Shown here: in pieces, positions 10,111-32,710 of the stretch
Position numbering within the stretch: the stretch's first letter is position 1
Layout of the letters: the number at the start of each line of letters is the position of its first letter
Assembly: GCF_055900595.2 (NCBI RefSeq)
Contig: NZ_CM148325.1
Length of the DNA stretch: 64,000 nt
Direction: 5' to 3' (one strand)
The notes under the pieces: generated by a model
What the model was told of the DNA's origin: nothing
The model's input: only the letters and a program-made list of their open reading frames with translations
Databases searched by the model: none
Position numbers and translations under genes: made by a program

Positions 10111-10755
10111 TCAGCCGGTGCGCAGACCGGCTTCGGTGAAGGTGTATTCGTTGATGAGAAGGGCCTCATCCACAGGGGCATCTGAGGTCAGCCTGTTGTG
10201 CTCGTTTTCCAGTTGACGGTACAGCCATAAGGCCAGGTCGCGCAGGGCTTCGCTGACAGCGGCTTCCGCATCTGTTGTCATAGTCTGACCAGTCGGACTG
10301 TTCCGGGTAACAGTGATATCCATGCTGTACGGATGGCAGTAGCGTCCCCGGCGGTGGATTTCAGCCTGCAGTTGCCAGAAGTTACGCTTCTGCACCGCCT
10401 GCAGGGCATCCGCGATACGATGGAGTTCATGCTCCTGTGGGGCATACTTCCGGATTATCCGGGCTGTCGCCGGCTGCCAGTGCCAGCGTCCTTCAAAACA
10501 GGCTCCGTCCCCCTGGCTGCAGCATCCGCTGAACCAGATGCACGGCTCTTCCATAAACCTGCCGTTGCTGAGCCGGAAAACGCGCTGGCGGAGGTCAATT
10601 CCGAAAATGTCACAGACCGCCCTGAAGTCCTCATACACGTTTTCATACCAGTTGCTGTCAGCATGATGCTGACGGTACCCGTCGCGGGCTTTTCCCCGTA
10701 CCGGGCAGGAAAGTTCATCCAGCGTATACACTGTGATGGTGATAATGCTGCTCAT
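10111..10755 (-). CDS. Hypothetical 214-aa protein inserted between the yeeT-like gene and cbeA; unrecognised family with Cys-rich central motif
   Basis: Clean 214-aa ORF in the same orientation, 18 bp after the yeeT-like stop and 50 bp before the cbeA start; central motif CIWFSGCCSQGDGACFEGRWHW. Confidence 0.55.
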   Translation of the reverse strand: MSSIITITVYTLDELSCPVRGKARDGYRQHHADSNWYENVYEDFRAVCDIFGIDLRQRVFRLSNGRFMEEPCIWFSGCCSQGDGACFEGRWHWQPATARIIRKYAPQEHELHRIADALQAVQKRNFWQLQAEIHRRGRYCHPYSMDITVTRNSPTGQTMTTDAEAAVSEALRDLALWLYRQLENEHNRLTSDAPVDEALLINEYTFTEAGLRTG

Positions 10756-10773
10756 CAGAATCCCCTTTCTGAT

Positions 10774-10995
10774 TCAGTTCAGGGTGACGCTCATCAGCCG
10801 GACATACGGGCCAAAACTGTCCTTACGGCGTTCAGCAAACACGGCCAGCACACCGGGAATATCCTGTACTTCACGACCGGTATACGTCTCAGCACTGCCG
10901 TGCCAGCGGTACTTACCGGTGCAGAACGGAAATAGACGGGATGCAGGATGCTGTTGGTGAATACGCATGGCTTCACCACGGGTGATAATTTTCAT
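10774..10995 (-). CDS. DUF987 family protein (YeeT-like)
   Basis: 73 aa, same length and position as yeeT in the CP4-44 module. Confidence 0.7.
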   Translation of the reverse strand: MKIITRGEAMRIHQQHPASRLFPFCTGKYRWHGSAETYTGREVQDIPGVLAVFAERRKDSFGPYVRLMSVTLN

Positions 10996-25789: not shown

Positions 25790-25920
25790 CAAATGAGTTA
25801 AACTTCAAATGGTTAAACTGGTTTTGCAACCAGGAGCCTCTGTTGCCCGTATTGCCCGGGAACACGATATCAATGATAACCTCCTGTTCAAATGGCTCAG
25901 ACTCTGGCAGAACGTAAGGT
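25790..25920 (+). mobile_element. Short remnant of an IS OrfA (IS3/IS66-like HTH fragment)
   Basis: Translation ...VARIAREHDINDNLLFKWLRLWQ resembles IS OrfA helix-turn-helix segments. Confidence 0.35.
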
Positions 25921-26744
25921 AAAGGGAGATGAAAAAGGCAATAGCAGAACTGAGTGACAGTGAAACCATTCTGGCGTACAGGGTTGGATGGTGAAACTGA
26001 TAAAAAACCCTCTGAAAATTCTGTCAGAGGGTGTAGTCAAAAATGGTAGATATTTACGATGCAGTAATGCTTTCACTCCGGTAATTAATTTCCGTGATTA
26101 ACTGCTTTCGATCAATAAAGGAATTGCAAAAGTGTGATCTTGTTCACGACATCGTGGATGATAATATGCCTGATGTCTGAATCCGGAAACAGTGCTCTGG
26201 CGGGTTTCATGTGAAGTTGACGGATAAAAAATCCGCACGACCAGACAGACGTGCGGTTTACGAAATTCGTAACAAGAGGCTTTTCTACGGATCACGTGGT
26301 GCGTGCCACGTGAAATTTTTGTAGCGCAAAATGTGCAATGTGTAAATACAAGGAAGGAAAAAAGTTAAATTGGTAGAAGTCCATGCCTGCCACATGTACG
26401 TCTGCATTCCTCGTTTTGAACAGAATTCTCACCAGACATCGTGAATTTCTCATTCAATCATCAGAGATATTAACCAGGATTTTTATTGTTTTGTGATATC
26501 AGCAGTGCAGGTATACAGACGTTAAAGTAATCAGGTTTATTATAACCACCTTTACAAAGTTGTATATGTTTATAATTTAATGATTTTAATGCCAGTCGTT
26601 TTCTGCTGCTTAAATTGAGGTCGCATATTATACACAATAATATTCCTGGCATTATTAAATTAATAAAAGAGGATTCTTATCACTGTATTTTTGCTCCGCA
26701 CTACCGTTCTGGCTGGTGAAGTAATAATACAGGAGAATAACAGA

Positions 26745-28385
26745 ATGCTTAAAAGACGTGATGCTTTTTTAAAGAAAAGCGCGCTGGCAGTGAGTGTGGC
26801 CCTGCTGCTCTCGGCTCAGGCTCAGGCTGTTTTGACAGGGCCTGTTGATGCTAATTCTTCCAGCTTACTGATTGGAGAAAACTCTTTTATTACGAATTCA
26901 ACTGGTACAGCTAATAACACTTTCCTTTTGGGAGGTGGCGCTTTTAACATGGATTCACCAGGAAGTCTTCAGTTTGGCTCTTTTTCGGGAGTGTATAATT
27001 CTCCACACAGTGTCACCCTGGGAAGGGATGCCGGTCAGGCTGAGTCAAAATATGGTGTTGCCATAGGTAAGAGCGCTGAGGTACTTAATTCACAGCAGAG
27101 TGTTGCTATTGGGGGATGGGCTGGAATAGAAAATTCTTCAGGCTCTGTAGCTCTGGGCCATGGCTCACAGGTGTCGGGAGAAAATAACGTGGTATCTGTT
27201 GGTGCCGGGCCTGAGGGATATGGAGAGAGTGTCAAAGGAGCACCGGAAACCCGCCGGATTATAAATGTGTCTGATGGTATCAATAACACAGATGCAGCGA
27301 CGGTAGGGCAACTGAATGAACGATTTGATGATGCACAGGTCTTTTTGTTGCAGACGAATGAAAGAATTGACGAGACAGATAAACGTCTTTCAACAGTTCA
27401 TGCTGAACTCAGCAGGGATATTATTGCAGGCACATCGGCAGCGGTGACGTATACAGATGTAACAGCGCTTGCACTTCAGGATGAGATAAAGGATGGGACG
27501 AACAAAGTACGTGATGAGTTGAAATCACAGGGAGACAGTCTGCGTGGTGAGATAGGCGGTGTATACAGAGATGCCCGTGCTCATACTGACAGTCAGGTCA
27601 CAGCAGTACGTGATGAACTGAAGGCAGAGGGAGACAGTCTGCGCGGTGAGATAGGCGGTGTATACAGAGATGCCCGTGCTCATACTGACAGTCAGGTCAC
27701 AGCAGTACGTGATGAACTGAAGGCAGAGGGAGACAGTCTGCGCGGTGAGATAGGCGGTGTATACAGAGATGCCCGTGCTCATACTGACAGTCAGGTTACA
27801 GCAGTACGTGATGAACTCAGCAGGGATATTATTGCAGGCACATCGGCAGCGGTGGCGTATACGGATGCATCTTCTCTTGCTCTTCAGGATGAAATAAAAG
27901 AAAAAGCGGATGAAACAGTTCAGGTTTCCCGGGCTTATACAGATAAAAGTGTACGGGATGCCCGTAAAGAAGCGAAAAGCCAGGCAGAACATCTCAGCGA
28001 TGTGCTTGTGAAGAACAGGGCGCAGACGGATGCAGCAATAGCCTCAAATACAGCAGCGATAAGGAATAACAGTCATCGTCTGGATTTGACGGAAGCCTGG
28101 CAGAAGATGGCGACAGAGAGAATGAATAATATGCAGGAGCAGATTAAAGAGAACCGGAAGGAGTTAAGGGAGAGTGCAGCCCAGAGCGCGGCACTGGCAG
28201 GTCTTTTCCAGCCATACAGTGTTGGAAAATTTAACGCGACAGCAGCCGTTGGTGGTTACCGTGATGAGCAGGCCATTGCGGTGGGCGTGGGCTACCGTTT
28301 CACAGAGAATGTGGCAGGAAAAGTTGCAGTTGCTGCAGGTGGGTCATCCGCATCGTGGAATGCTGGTGTGAATTTTGAGTTCTGA
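26745..28385 (+). CDS. YadA-type trimeric autotransporter adhesin (Saa/Eib-like) with internal tandem repeats
   Basis: Signal peptide [28 protein letters not shown], head and coiled-coil stalk, C-terminal beta anchor ending [16 protein letters not shown] before ATG 26745; the track ORF begins at 26691. Confidence 0.75.
27511..27807 (+). repeat. Three tandem 99-bp in-frame repeats (33-aa units [33 protein letters not shown]) inside the adhesin stalk
   Basis: Period of 99 bp measured between 27511, 27610 and 27709; copies 2 and 3 are near-identical. Confidence 0.9.
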
Positions 28386-28446
28386 CAGGTCAGGATTTAG
28401 ATATCTGTCCCGGGGGGAGTCCCCCGGGATATAATGAGGTACAGAG

Positions 28447-28902
28447 ATGCTGGATATAATCCTGGCGACGAGAGATATTTATTTTGAAAAAGCCCTGCGA
28501 GAGATATTTGGAACCGTAAGCAGTCGAATCAGATATATAGAAGATGCCATATCAGACAGAAGAAGGGTGCAGTCAGGCAGGTCATTCAGATATTATTTTG
28601 TATTCTGTGATGATGAGTATACAGATATTGTTCGTATTCTTTTTACCGGAGAGGCCTGCTGTATTCTGAATAAGTCGATGCTGAATCTGAGAGCGGCCGG
28701 AGGTGTGTTGACGCTGGAAGAGCGCAGAGCGGTACTGAACCGGTATTACAGAGGTTTAAGTATTGCGGAGATTACAGAAGAGACGGGGCAGAATGACAAG
28801 ACGGTATACGGTCATCTTCGTCGTGCACTGCAGCGGTCTGGATTCCGGAAGGGGCGTTTTATAAAGGGGAGAGAAGCGGCGGGGGATTCAGGTGTTGAAT
28901 AA
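28447..28902 (+). CDS. Small putative regulator with sigma-70 region 4 / LuxR-type HTH
   Basis: 151 aa; LTLEERRAVLNRYYRGLSIAEITEETGQNDKTVYGHLRRAL resembles ECF sigma region 4. Confidence 0.5.
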   Translation: MLDIILATRDIYFEKALREIFGTVSSRIRYIEDAISDRRRVQSGRSFRYYFVFCDDEYTDIVRILFTGEACCILNKSMLNLRAAGGVLTLEERRAVLNRYYRGLSIAEITEETGQNDKTVYGHLRRALQRSGFRKGRFIKGREAAGDSGVE

Positions 28903-29169
28903 TGTATCTTATATTGTGATATCGGTGCTGCTGCTGTTATTTTTTGTTGTATTTGTGACGAATGGTTAAGAATAAAACATGAGTTGGTGATTATCAGGAC
29001 AGGTTGCTTGTATATGAAGATAACAAAGGCGGCATTTATTTTTGCGCTGTCAGTGTGGAGTGTTGCTGTGATATGTCTTTTATTATTTGTACTGGTTGTT
29101 CTGGGATAGCCATAGTGAAATAAAAAGCTGTCTGAATTAAATTATTTTGAACACATATTTTAATTCTGC

Positions 29170-31266: not shown

Positions 31267-32284
31267 TCATGCCAGTGGACTCATGACCCTCTGCCTGAGT
31301 AGTTCAAATCCGGCTCGACCATACATCTGGCCTTTCAGCATTTTTAGTCGATTTACATGACTTTCGACAACCCCCATTATTCCAGCGACTGCTGATTGCC
31401 TCACATATAGCCGCAGCATCAGCTGCCATCCTTGCAGCCACGCGCCGAAGTTACCACTTTCTCGTTGCTCTTTTAACCACTCCCTCCATGGGGCCAGAAG
31501 TCCTCGCTCTGGAGGCCGGGTTGACATTTCAGGGAATGTTCCTGAACACACCCAGAGACTGACTGTCACACGTGATAAGCCTGTAATACGGGATATTTCC
31601 CCTGAACCCACATCCCTTGTTATGTAGTGCCATAACCTCTGTCCAACGCTGATGCCGTTTTTGGCGGGTTTGCTGTTTAAGGCGTTCCGGACGACGGAGC
31701 GATGCTACAGGCACAGACAGTACTGGCTTAGGTGATTTCTTTGGTGACAACCCACTGGCAACAAGACGTATCAGAGGCATCTGTCTGTACATCATTCGTT
31801 CAGGCGCATCGCCAATATTTTTTAGCAGGTGCCATCGATCAGCTATCTGTCTGGCCTGAGGTGCACCTTCACGTGCTGCTGTCGCATAGACTCCGCCACG
31901 GTCACGTGAGACAACCTGTATTTCCGGATATTTTCTGAACCAGGTCGCCAGCGTACTCTGATCGCAACCGGGAAGCAGGACGAGGGGACGGTGAGTATCA
32001 AGATTGACGATTAACGTGCCGTAATGGTGGCCCCGATGCCACGCCCACTCATCAATACCGACATGAGGCGCGCCCGACTGTTTCGTCTCCGGGGTATTAA
32101 TAACCCTGCGAAGAAGAGTATCAGCACTGCAACGTAGCCCCACTGCCGTTGCTGCCTGTTTCCCGGCCTCACCTCCGGCTATTAATCCCGGTTGACGTTG
32201 TAAATTTTGTAACGCCTGTGAATACTGCTGATGTGAACTGTGAAGGGAGGCTGAGACTCGGCAAAATTTTTCGTTAACAGGCAA
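31267..32284 (-). pseudogene. ISL3-family transposase fragments
   Basis: Two overlapping ORFs with ISL3-like motifs (DEWAWHRGHHYGTLIVNLDTH). Confidence 0.55.
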
Positions 32285-32710
32285 GGGTTATGGCAGCACC
32301 AGAGTAAGATGCGTCTGGGCTGAGCAGGGTAAGTGCTGTATCTGGAGGCGATGGCATCTATGAACTGAGTAGCTGTGCTTAAGGTATTCAACACATAGTG
32401 CTGTTTTGCATTTTCCGGGGAGATGGAGGGTTATATACCGTCAGTGCTAATAACTTCTTGACCGTATTGCCATCAGCAAAGTAACCGTAGAAATCTCTTA
32501 AGTGAGTGTATTAAGTTACCCATAACTTAAAACGGCTTCACTGGTAAGCCTCATACATTTTCTTTCACTCAAGTTGTGGAAGCCCTCTTTCGTCGAACCG
32601 TTCGTTATAAATGCAAAAGATGTATGCTGACCCTCTCAAAGCCGAAATCATACAGAGTTTATGGAAAAGTGGTGAACCAGTCGCGTCGAAAGTAGATTGA
32701 GCTCATATCA

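Follow-up and report, generated by a model that had tools for sequence, protein, structure and literature searches.

What kind of surface protein is encoded by the repeat-bearing gene at positions 26745..28385 of this Escherichia coli sequence, and why is it followed, after a gap of 61 bp, by a small gene (28447..28902) for a putative DNA-binding protein? Both genes lie on the + strand of a 64,000-nucleotide stretch of contig NZ_CM148325.1 (RefSeq assembly GCF_055900595.2), referred to here as the window, and encode proteins of 546 and 151 amino acids (aa), respectively. The answer that we consider likely is that the locus represents a degenerate eib-type cassette, made up of a lollipop-shaped trimeric autotransporter adhesin (TAA) of variable length and a regulator-like partner that belongs to the ORF-156 family. 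The two open reading frames (ORFs) coincide with RefSeq coding sequences of E. coli isolate F374 (NZ_OY754371.1), and the 2.6 kb of the window that was tested showed 100% identity to the F374 chromosome. RefSeq names the longer product a 'YadA-like family protein' (WP_106652286.1) and the shorter one a 'sigma factor-like helix-turn-helix DNA-binding protein' (WP_000884153.1). A search of the literature found no paper describing either the 546-aa adhesin or its 151-aa partner.

Architecture and length variation of the adhesin

The 546-aa protein begins with a signal peptide (aa 1-28), read from the sequence, which is followed by a small YadA-like beta-roll head (26829..27239, aa ~29-165), a neck (aa ~166-195), a coiled-coil stalk (aa ~196-487) and a C-terminal YadA-type membrane anchor (28206..28382, aa 488-546). 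SadA head and neck structures in the PDB matched aa 131-201, a Pfam YadA_stalk/neck match was found at aa 171-192, and the anchor matched both Pfam PF03895 (YadA_anchor, E value 3.8e-16) and the PDB YadA anchor 2lme (E value 2.2e-17). An AlphaFold2 (AF2) model of the monomer, from which only secondary structure was taken, contained strands at residues 40-152, helices at 184-231, 243-394 and 402-487, and four anchor strands at 496-544. A signal peptide followed by head, neck and coiled-coil stalk is the layout of the type Vc TAAs, as is a C-terminal YadA-type anchor that contributes four beta-strands per monomer. Judged from its sequence, the protein is a TAA (type Vc) of the ordinary kind. An earlier note on this DNA, written from the letters alone, had made the same assignment and had let it depend on homology to TAA anchors, which the two matches to the YadA anchor supply.

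Within the stalk are three tandem units of 99 bp (27511..27807, + strand), all of them in frame and each encoding 33 aa that start with RDELK followed by SQ or AE. Tandem Repeats Finder placed the array at 27506-27817, with a period of 99, 3.2 copies, 96% matches, no indels and a score of 575. Units 1 (27511-27609) and 2 (27610-27708) differ by six mismatches, with a peptide change of SQ versus AE, while units 2 and 3 (27709-27807) differ by a single C/T mismatch (27698/27797). These counts agree with the earlier description of three in-frame repeats whose second and third copies are nearly identical and point to a recent expansion. What had been missed is a direct repeat of 106 nt that brackets the array on the + strand. 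Its left copy (27388..27493) and right copy (27796..27901) are 86% identical and lie 408 bp (136 codons) apart.

The hydrophobicity spectrum peaked at 3.67 residues in the array and at 3.66 residues in the whole stalk. Since 33/9 equals 3.67, one unit would correspond to nine helical turns of a hendecad-type coiled coil, and the gain or loss of whole units would therefore keep the register of the coiled-coil core. The expected change in stalk length is approximately 5 nm per unit (33 x 0.15 nm). Six [Y/H]TD motifs, one per unit, occur in the stalk and are reminiscent of the YxD motif known from right-handed coiled coils of TAAs. The protein as a whole can be pictured as a lollipop, with a Sec-type signal peptide, a beta-roll head and neck, a long hendecad-type stalk and the YadA anchor.

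The 120 best relatives of the adhesin were surveyed for length. Full-length proteins among them measured 410, 480-484, 513-519, 546-550 or 555-557 aa, corresponding to 0, 1, 2, 3 and 4 units, respectively. Two or three different unit numbers were also found on each of 13 backbones that show 100% identity outside the array, which indicates that the unit number has changed repeatedly, and faster than point mutations arise. The length variation that had been thought likely from the window alone is thus seen directly among the relatives. The 410-aa form contains a single copy of the 106-nt bracketing repeat and no 33-aa unit; it is the product to be expected from recombination between the brackets, since removal of 136 residues from 546 leaves 410. 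Among complete genomes, most of which were derived from long reads, the locus spans 2601, 2502 or 2403 bp. Arrays of tandem repeats that exceed the length of short reads are prone to mis-assembly, and the earlier note had itself raised an artefact of assembly as a concern. The same 3-unit array was found in independent complete genomes (H2, H3, H36 and H38) and in an 18-contig protein cluster, 1-, 2- and 3-unit forms are present at the same locus in complete genomes, and the diagnostic substitutions follow a consistent order, with the SQ-type unit first and the AE-type units after it. An artefact is therefore extremely improbable, and the array can be regarded as real.

Unequal recombination or replication slippage between the 93-99% identical 99-bp units would add or remove whole units, and recombination between the 106-nt brackets would remove the entire array to give the 410-aa form. 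Since such changes are in frame, they would modulate the length of the stalk and its antigenic surface, and would not switch the gene on or off; with the register kept at each step, the displayed head would simply reach further or less far. The array provides a typing marker that can be sized by PCR. It also bears on the choice of vaccine antigens and on how far the head must project beyond the O-antigen or capsule.

A region-wise comparison of the relatives distinguished two alleles of the head (aa 29-165) that are only ~53% identical to one another. Genes with either head allele are 99-100% identical in the signal peptide, neck, distal stalk and anchor, and an alternative module with ~66% identity exists for the proximal stalk. 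The recombination boundaries around the head are sharp, suggesting cassette-like head exchange. On the strength of these comparisons the gene is best described as a mosaic assembled by recombination, in which the head would be exchanged as a cassette between the two alleles. For three layers of surface variation on one gene the evidence is unusually clean, namely exchange of the whole head, alternative stalk modules, and the rapid gain or loss of 33-residue units that preserve the register. In one strain, L26, the adhesin gene is split by a frameshift (positions 9344-10886 of comparison locus L019).

Kinship with Eib, Saa, Yal and YadA proteins

Having been described in the earlier note as typical of Saa- and Eib-type adhesins, the protein was compared with both. 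Among the Eibs, EibC gave the best match (57% of the query covered, 36.4% identity); EibD and EibE matched only aa 332/373-521 of the adhesin. The likeness lies toward the C terminus. Identity to EibC/D amounts to 39.6% across the final 225 aa, and the anchor together with the last coiled-coil segment (aa 429/434-521) is 57-62% identical to EibA and to prophage TAAs, the anchor being the most Eib-like portion of the whole adhesin. The beta-roll of the head gave a weak match of ~34% identity, and fragments from the EibD crystal structures matched the adhesin with an E value of 0.2 or not at all.

There are also differences in the overall plan of the protein. The N-terminal domain of the Eibs is absent, so that the head starts directly after the signal peptide, and the saddle is absent as well. 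The alignment gaps the entire saddle segment and has a further 10-residue gap in the coil just after the saddle position, and in the adhesin model the helix is interrupted only briefly, at 232-242 and 395-401. Compared with the Eibs, the adhesin has a much longer stalk, which is of the hendecad type and contains the variable-number 33-aa module, and it is encoded in a decayed chromosomal island, whereas the eib genes lie in prophages P-EibA, P-EibC, P-EibD and P-EibE of ECOR-9. With 36-40% identity confined to the C-terminal part and neither saddle nor N-terminal domain, close membership of the Eib family was rejected. Saa, the autoagglutinating adhesin of Shiga toxin-producing E. coli encoded on plasmid pO113, is likewise a TAA with a strain-variable number of C-terminal stalk repeats (PMC6024878). 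The Saa gene is plasmid-borne, whereas the window adhesin is chromosomal, and their repeat units are unrelated in sequence. No partner of the ORF-156 type is reported for Saa, a search for one not having been made. Saa orthology was also rejected, the identity being 24.6% over 73% of the protein (aa 124-521) with E values of 5e-7 to 2e-6. What stood of the earlier description was the variable number of stalk repeats, as in Saa; membership of the Saa or Eib group did not stand, and the comparison that the note had proposed for this purpose showed its label to be too loose.

A bioRxiv preprint of December 2025 (10.64898/2025.12.25.695649) divides the EibG-like adhesins into Eib, Cla and Yal proteins. 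According to this preprint, the Cla proteins possess a saddle, have no Eib N-terminal domain and show chain-like adhesion, its similarity matrix setting them apart from the Eibs at limited similarity, and ClaA and ClaB do not bind immunoglobulin G (IgG) through its Fc part; the Yal proteins have neither saddle nor N-terminal domain, and their function is unknown. The Cla precedent is relevant to the idea that the window gene encodes a functional Eib- or Saa-type protein, either an immunoglobulin-binding protein or a Saa-orthologous autoagglutinin. That idea can draw on the older NCBI name of family fragments ('immunoglobulin-binding protein'), on the Eib-like anchor and membrane-proximal coil, and on the stalk repeats that vary in Saa too. 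It has to contend with the low identity to Saa, the restriction of the Eib match to the C-terminal part, the failure of the EibD fragments to match, the loss of saddle and N-terminal domain, and the lack of IgG-Fc binding by ClaA and ClaB. By analogy with the Cla proteins, immunoglobulin binding by the adhesin would be unlikely, and we consider the idea as a whole improbable.

The published description that the window adhesin does fit is that of the Yal proteins, and the likeness is one of description only, as the preprint gives no sequences or accessions. The strains of the preprint are Shiga toxin-producing E. coli negative for the locus of enterocyte effacement, whereas the window locus is found mostly in poultry and human extraintestinal-type isolates. 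We also noted that the IgG-binding EibE residues D378 and Y388 given in the preprint do not fit the numbering of AF151676. YadA of Yersinia, the prototype of the lollipop TAAs, has the same head-neck-stalk-anchor layout, with a larger head and a stalk unrelated in sequence, and an orthologous relationship was rejected in view of an NCBIfam YadA model match (aa 367-545) that scored 77 bits against a cut-off of 750 bits. A 316-aa relative with a short stalk, 43% identical to the adhesin, is encoded on an Enterobacter cloacae plasmid. Taken together, the alignments place the adhesin in a distinct Eib-related lineage, in which only the anchor and the membrane-proximal coil are Eib-like. The TAAs of E. 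coli that are related to the Eibs, a group that continues to grow, thereby gain one more lineage.

The partner gene and the probable eib-type cassette

The GenBank records of P-EibA, P-EibC, P-EibD and P-EibE all show the same order of elements, namely orf-191, stem-loop, eib, stem-loop, orf-156 and orf-60. Much of this order can be recognized in the window. Upstream of the adhesin, just after an insertion sequence (IS) fragment, are 27 codons left from the 3' end of a tail-fibre(-assembly) gene of the ORF-191 type (25911..25991, + strand). This remnant was found by tblastn with ORF-191C (55.6% identity over 27 aa, aa 166-192 of 195, E value 1.6e-4), its translation ends in ILAYRVGW followed by the stop codon, and its DNA resembles the region upstream of eibA; ORF-191C itself matches phrog_1141, a tail fiber protein. 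The remnant was the only thing that the upstream DNA had in common with the eib loci, and no shared promoter or operator was seen. Downstream of the adhesin are a hairpin and the 151-aa gene.

It was only on reading how the eib records are annotated that the kinship of the 151-aa protein with ORF-156 was seen; alignment and profile comparison were used to test it. The protein is collinear from end to end with ORF-156A, C, D and E at about 19-27% identity (BLASTP to ORF-156C, E value 4e-5), and a profile of 21 ORF-156 proteins, from which the query was excluded, matched it in hhalign with a probability of 95.4% and an E value of 1.8e-8 over 129 columns. In PHROGs, ORF-156C falls into phrog_6585 (unknown function), and the N-terminal domain of the 151-aa protein matches this same group (E value 3.3e-4). 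Residues R40, D55, F66, G68, L88, E92, KTV118-120 and L124 are invariant in the family and in the 151-aa protein. The two are of the same size and occupy the same position after a TAA gene and hairpin. They differ in that ORF-156 proteins have a 15-residue insert before the helix-turn-helix (HTH), which is absent from the 151-aa protein, and in that typical members have no Pfam domain, whereas the 151-aa protein scores on Sigma70_r4_2 (aa 87-130, E value 4e-7). These comparisons identify the protein as a divergent member of the uncharacterized ORF-156 family (phrog_6585), whose members are otherwise listed as 'hypothetical proteins' of E. coli or Citrobacter.

Nine of the 12 ORF-156 lineage contexts that were inspected, a small sample, have a YadA_anchor gene immediately upstream. 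These nine are the four ECOR-9 loci, the window, and comparison loci L008, L014, L027 and L028; in four loci the gap from TAA to ORF-156 gene is 83-92 bp. L008 represents a prophage tail-spike context, and L014 is plasmid-like and has a second TAA of 1439 aa. Wherever the locus occurs in a complete E. coli genome, the adhesin gene and the 151-aa gene are both present. Taken as a whole, the locus is best interpreted as a degenerate, prophage-derived eib-type cassette in a decayed island. The novelty is modest. It lies in placing the downstream gene in the ORF-156 family and in recognizing this family as truncated-receiver/HTH proteins encoded behind TAAs. On the plasmid-like contigs L014-L016 (1-3918), the ORF-156 gene stands behind an Eib-like TAA that is itself preceded by the 1439-aa TAA and a BamE/OmpA-domain gene, and this two-adhesin module adjoins vapBC- and ccdAB-type toxin-antitoxin genes. 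The P0172 locus was found in only 2 complete E. coli genomes.

In the AF2 model of the 151-aa protein, which has a predicted local distance difference test (pLDDT) score of 77.8, aa 2-79 form a truncated receiver-like domain and aa 90-131 an HTH of the sigma-region-4/LuxR type. The only strands are at 2-7, 28-30, 49-54 and 70-75, and the invariant D55 lies at the end of strand 3. The fold resembles that of the NarL-type regulators RcsB, EvgA, NarL and StyR. In contrast to the NarL/FixJ proteins, the receiver is truncated after strand 4 and has no alpha4-beta5-alpha5 portion, the acidic pair after strand 1 and the conserved Lys are absent, and no partner kinase is encoded near the gene. A true NarL/FixJ receiver was rejected for want of the acidic pair, strand 5 and the Lys, and the model suggests that the protein is probably phosphorylation-independent. 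A defence role was likewise rejected, PADLOC giving no match to the 151-aa protein.

The Sigma70_r4_2 match, the RefSeq name and weak NCBIfam matches to extracytoplasmic function (ECF) sigma factors, confined to region 4, might instead be taken to indicate a small alternative (ECF-like) sigma factor. The NCBIfam matches are restricted to aa ~80-130 and score at most 21 bits, where the cut-offs are 42-226 bits; region 2 is lacking, and the N-terminal half is modeled as a beta-alpha receiver-like fold. A sigma factor is thus effectively refuted and can be given only a very slight chance. The 'small sigma-like regulator' of the earlier note accordingly keeps its HTH, which does resemble sigma region 4, and loses the sigma-like character of the whole. 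Beyond E. coli, sequence searches added little. A word-indexed search of 5.8 billion proteins returned only near-identical E. coli copies of the 151-aa protein, and an exhaustive HMMER search of 1.84 billion representatives returned its own fragments and four marginal HTH matches.

The DNA around the two genes also bears on how they might be expressed. Upstream of the adhesin is an AT-rich region (26314..26744, + strand) with 33.6% GC against 49.8% for the window. It is bounded at its upstream end by a terminator-like hairpin (26292-26313), it is presumed to hold the promoter of the adhesin together with a silencing region, and an AGGAG ribosome-binding site lies just 5' of the adhesin ATG. 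A GC content this low over ~430 bp is typical of horizontally acquired promoters that are silenced by nucleoid proteins. A scan for the sigma-70 consensus revealed no convincing + strand promoter for either the adhesin or the 151-aa gene. Between the two genes is a G+C-rich hairpin of 10 bp (28407..28430, + strand; RNA fold centroid -22.2 kcal/mol, z -2.3) that starts 21 nt after the adhesin and is followed after 16 nt by the 151-aa gene, which has a GAGG ribosome-binding site 7 nt 5' of its ATG. The stem-loops at this position in the eib loci have U-tracts and are intrinsic terminators, whereas the hairpin of the window has no U-tract, so that read-through into the 151-aa gene is likely and the two genes are probably co-transcribed. 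Synthesis of the partner would then be coupled to transcription of the adhesin by read-through past the hairpin.

In other strains the 61-bp gap (28386-28446) holds one of three different IS elements, IS421 in SFE8 and GZ2408C, IS5 in PK8275 and PK8261, and IS3 in 2020N21-246; examples are found at 7196-8308 of comparison locus L021 and at 3471-4451 of L022. Either a hot spot for IS insertion located at the hairpin or close to it, or selection for uncoupling of the two genes, may account for this pattern. No ORF-60 homologue was found 3' of the 151-aa gene, where there are short hydrophobic ORFs only. One of these (28893-28970, + strand) encodes 25 aa from a GTG start and overlaps the stop of the 151-aa gene (VLNNVSYIVISVLLLLFFVVFVTNG), and a second (29014-29109, + strand) encodes 31 aa (MKITKAAFIFALSVWSVAVICLLLFVLVVLG). 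A comparable overlap exists in the eib loci, where the stop of orf-156 is overlapped by a 60-aa ORF that has a hydrophobic tail, and no sequence homology was detected between this ORF and the two short ORFs of the window.

The earlier note had suggested that the downstream gene could be a dedicated regulator of the adhesin, and this idea gains support from the placement of the 151-aa protein in a family encoded right after eibA, eibC, eibD, eibE and other Eib-like TAA genes. The most likely role of the partner, a pseudo-receiver joined to a sigma-4/LuxR-type HTH, would be that of a phosphorylation-independent DNA-binding regulator. Its targets might be the AT-rich promoter of the adhesin itself, in a feedback loop, or else genes for motility or for other surface structures. 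A broader proposal is that the ORF-156 proteins constitute an unrecognized class of phosphorylation-independent pseudo-receiver/HTH proteins that co-evolved with Eib-type TAAs as a two-gene module and serve as the missing cis-encoded switch of the adhesin, or as a coupler to motility and the surface. We offer this proposal tentatively, as a possibility that may well prove wrong. How these adhesins are regulated is poorly understood, and the partner is in any case a concrete candidate that can be put to the test.

A number of points weigh against the interpretation of the locus as an eib-type cassette with a lollipop adhesin and a regulator-like partner. The AF2 monomer of the adhesin is of low confidence (pLDDT 59.6), unit counts taken from short-read assemblies may be too low, and adhesion, trimerization, co-transcription and DNA binding are all properties that we infer. 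The homology between the partner and ORF-156 is remote enough to have been missed by tblastn of the 151-aa protein against phage records, which found nothing at E values up to 1. Three of the 12 ORF-156 lineages stand alone, with no adjacent TAA remnant when this was looked for. The strains that have IS elements between the genes can, for their part, evidently dispense with the coupling. Finally, eibG, claA and claB complement from plasmids with only 168 bp of upstream DNA (10.64898/2025.12.25.695649), and expression of Eib and Cla proteins from plasmids without ORF-156 makes the role of an essential activator unlikely.

An alternative role for the partner is that of a cross-regulator, made together with the adhesin and repressing motility or other adhesins. 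PapX and MrpJ, whose genes close fimbrial operons at the 3' end, are cross-regulators of this kind. The 151-aa gene follows the adhesin gene at its 3' end and is preceded by a hairpin with no U-tract, which would suit this role, as would the resemblance of its fold to RcsB and EvgA, the persistence of some ORF-156 members with no neighboring TAA, and the plasmid expression of Eib and Cla proteins mentioned above. The target of such a regulator is only hypothetical, however, and the TAA association in nine of 12 lineages fits a role in cis equally well; we would rate the cross-regulator at about one chance in four.

The 151-aa gene could also be a vestigial prophage passenger, linked to the adhesin only through a common moron cassette. 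The prophage origin of the cassette, the tolerated IS insertions between the two genes and the absence of homologues outside the Enterobacteriaceae among the 1.84 billion representatives are all compatible with this. Yet the 151-aa ORF is intact, with the listed copies 94-100% identical in all strains examined, while neighboring genes have become pseudogenes. The TAA (~40%) and its partner (22-27%) have diverged together from the Eib/ORF-156 pairs, and gene order, spacing and hairpin are still kept, which argues for long-term co-retention. A mere passenger is for these reasons unlikely, and we continue to favor a regulator-like partner.

The chromosomal island and the IbrAB-like pair

The adhesin locus is carried by ~40 of 5426 complete E. 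coli genomes, always on the chromosome, and many of these genomes are from chickens; it was chromosomal in all 373 matching genomes. The surrounding island is a mosaic. One flank consists of a CP4-type island segment with CbtA/YeeU-type toxin-antitoxin genes. The other begins with a major facilitator superfamily transporter gene and iucABCD-iutA, continues with sitABCD, sodC and a group II intron, and contains more than 10 IS remnants. No intact prophage was found around the locus. The cassette would thus have become fixed in an IS-riddled E. coli chromosomal island beside the aerobactin and sit genes. The aerobactin operon next to the cassette shows decay as well, iucD being annotated with a frameshift in F374 (32052-33385 of comparison locus L001, ~38451-39784 of the window).

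The same mosaic island contains, beginning 31.6 kb past the end of the 151-aa gene, an IbrAB-like pair on the + strand. The first gene (60503..61729) encodes an IbrA-like, PAPS-reductase-like protein of 408 aa, and the second (61714..62358) an IbrB-like, ParB-like protein of 214 aa, which RefSeq calls an 'IbrB-like domain-containing protein'. According to Sandt et al. (2002), as cited in PMC6024878, IbrAB activates prophage eib genes, and the pair might accordingly regulate the window adhesin as reported for the eib genes of ECOR-9. The presence of the pair on the island supports this, as does the occurrence of an allele of at least 99% identity in 47 genomes, including the TAA-positive ones, in which the distance is similar. 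Set against it, ibrAB-like DNA was found in 2143 of the 5426 complete genomes (39%), with 84 places on plasmids, compared with the ~40 genomes that have the TAA; the aerobactin, sit and sodC genes and the IS remnants lie between; strain 702/18 keeps intact TAA and HTH genes, with ibrA gone and half of ibrB lost; and the adhesin is only distantly Eib-like. Regulation by the pair is rather improbable on this evidence, and co-residence is all that can be claimed. The observation that an IbrAB-like pair lies some 32 kb away was correct, and the regulatory link attached to it is weak. Through its PAPS-reductase-like domain, the IbrA-like protein gave weak PADLOC matches to BrxP (E value 2.4e-7) and DndC (E value 9e-4).

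A portion of the locus has also been found outside the chromosome. The IncI-gamma/K1 NDM-5 plasmid pNDM5_LS003 (NZ_OP290546.1, 6001-6850 of comparison locus L002) holds the upstream island segment and adhesin codons 1-168. This piece is 99.9-100% identical and is then cut off beside a floR module. The adhesin fragment on the plasmid is annotated as a 'Tat pathway signal sequence protein', probably owing to the motif KRRDAFLKK in its signal peptide.

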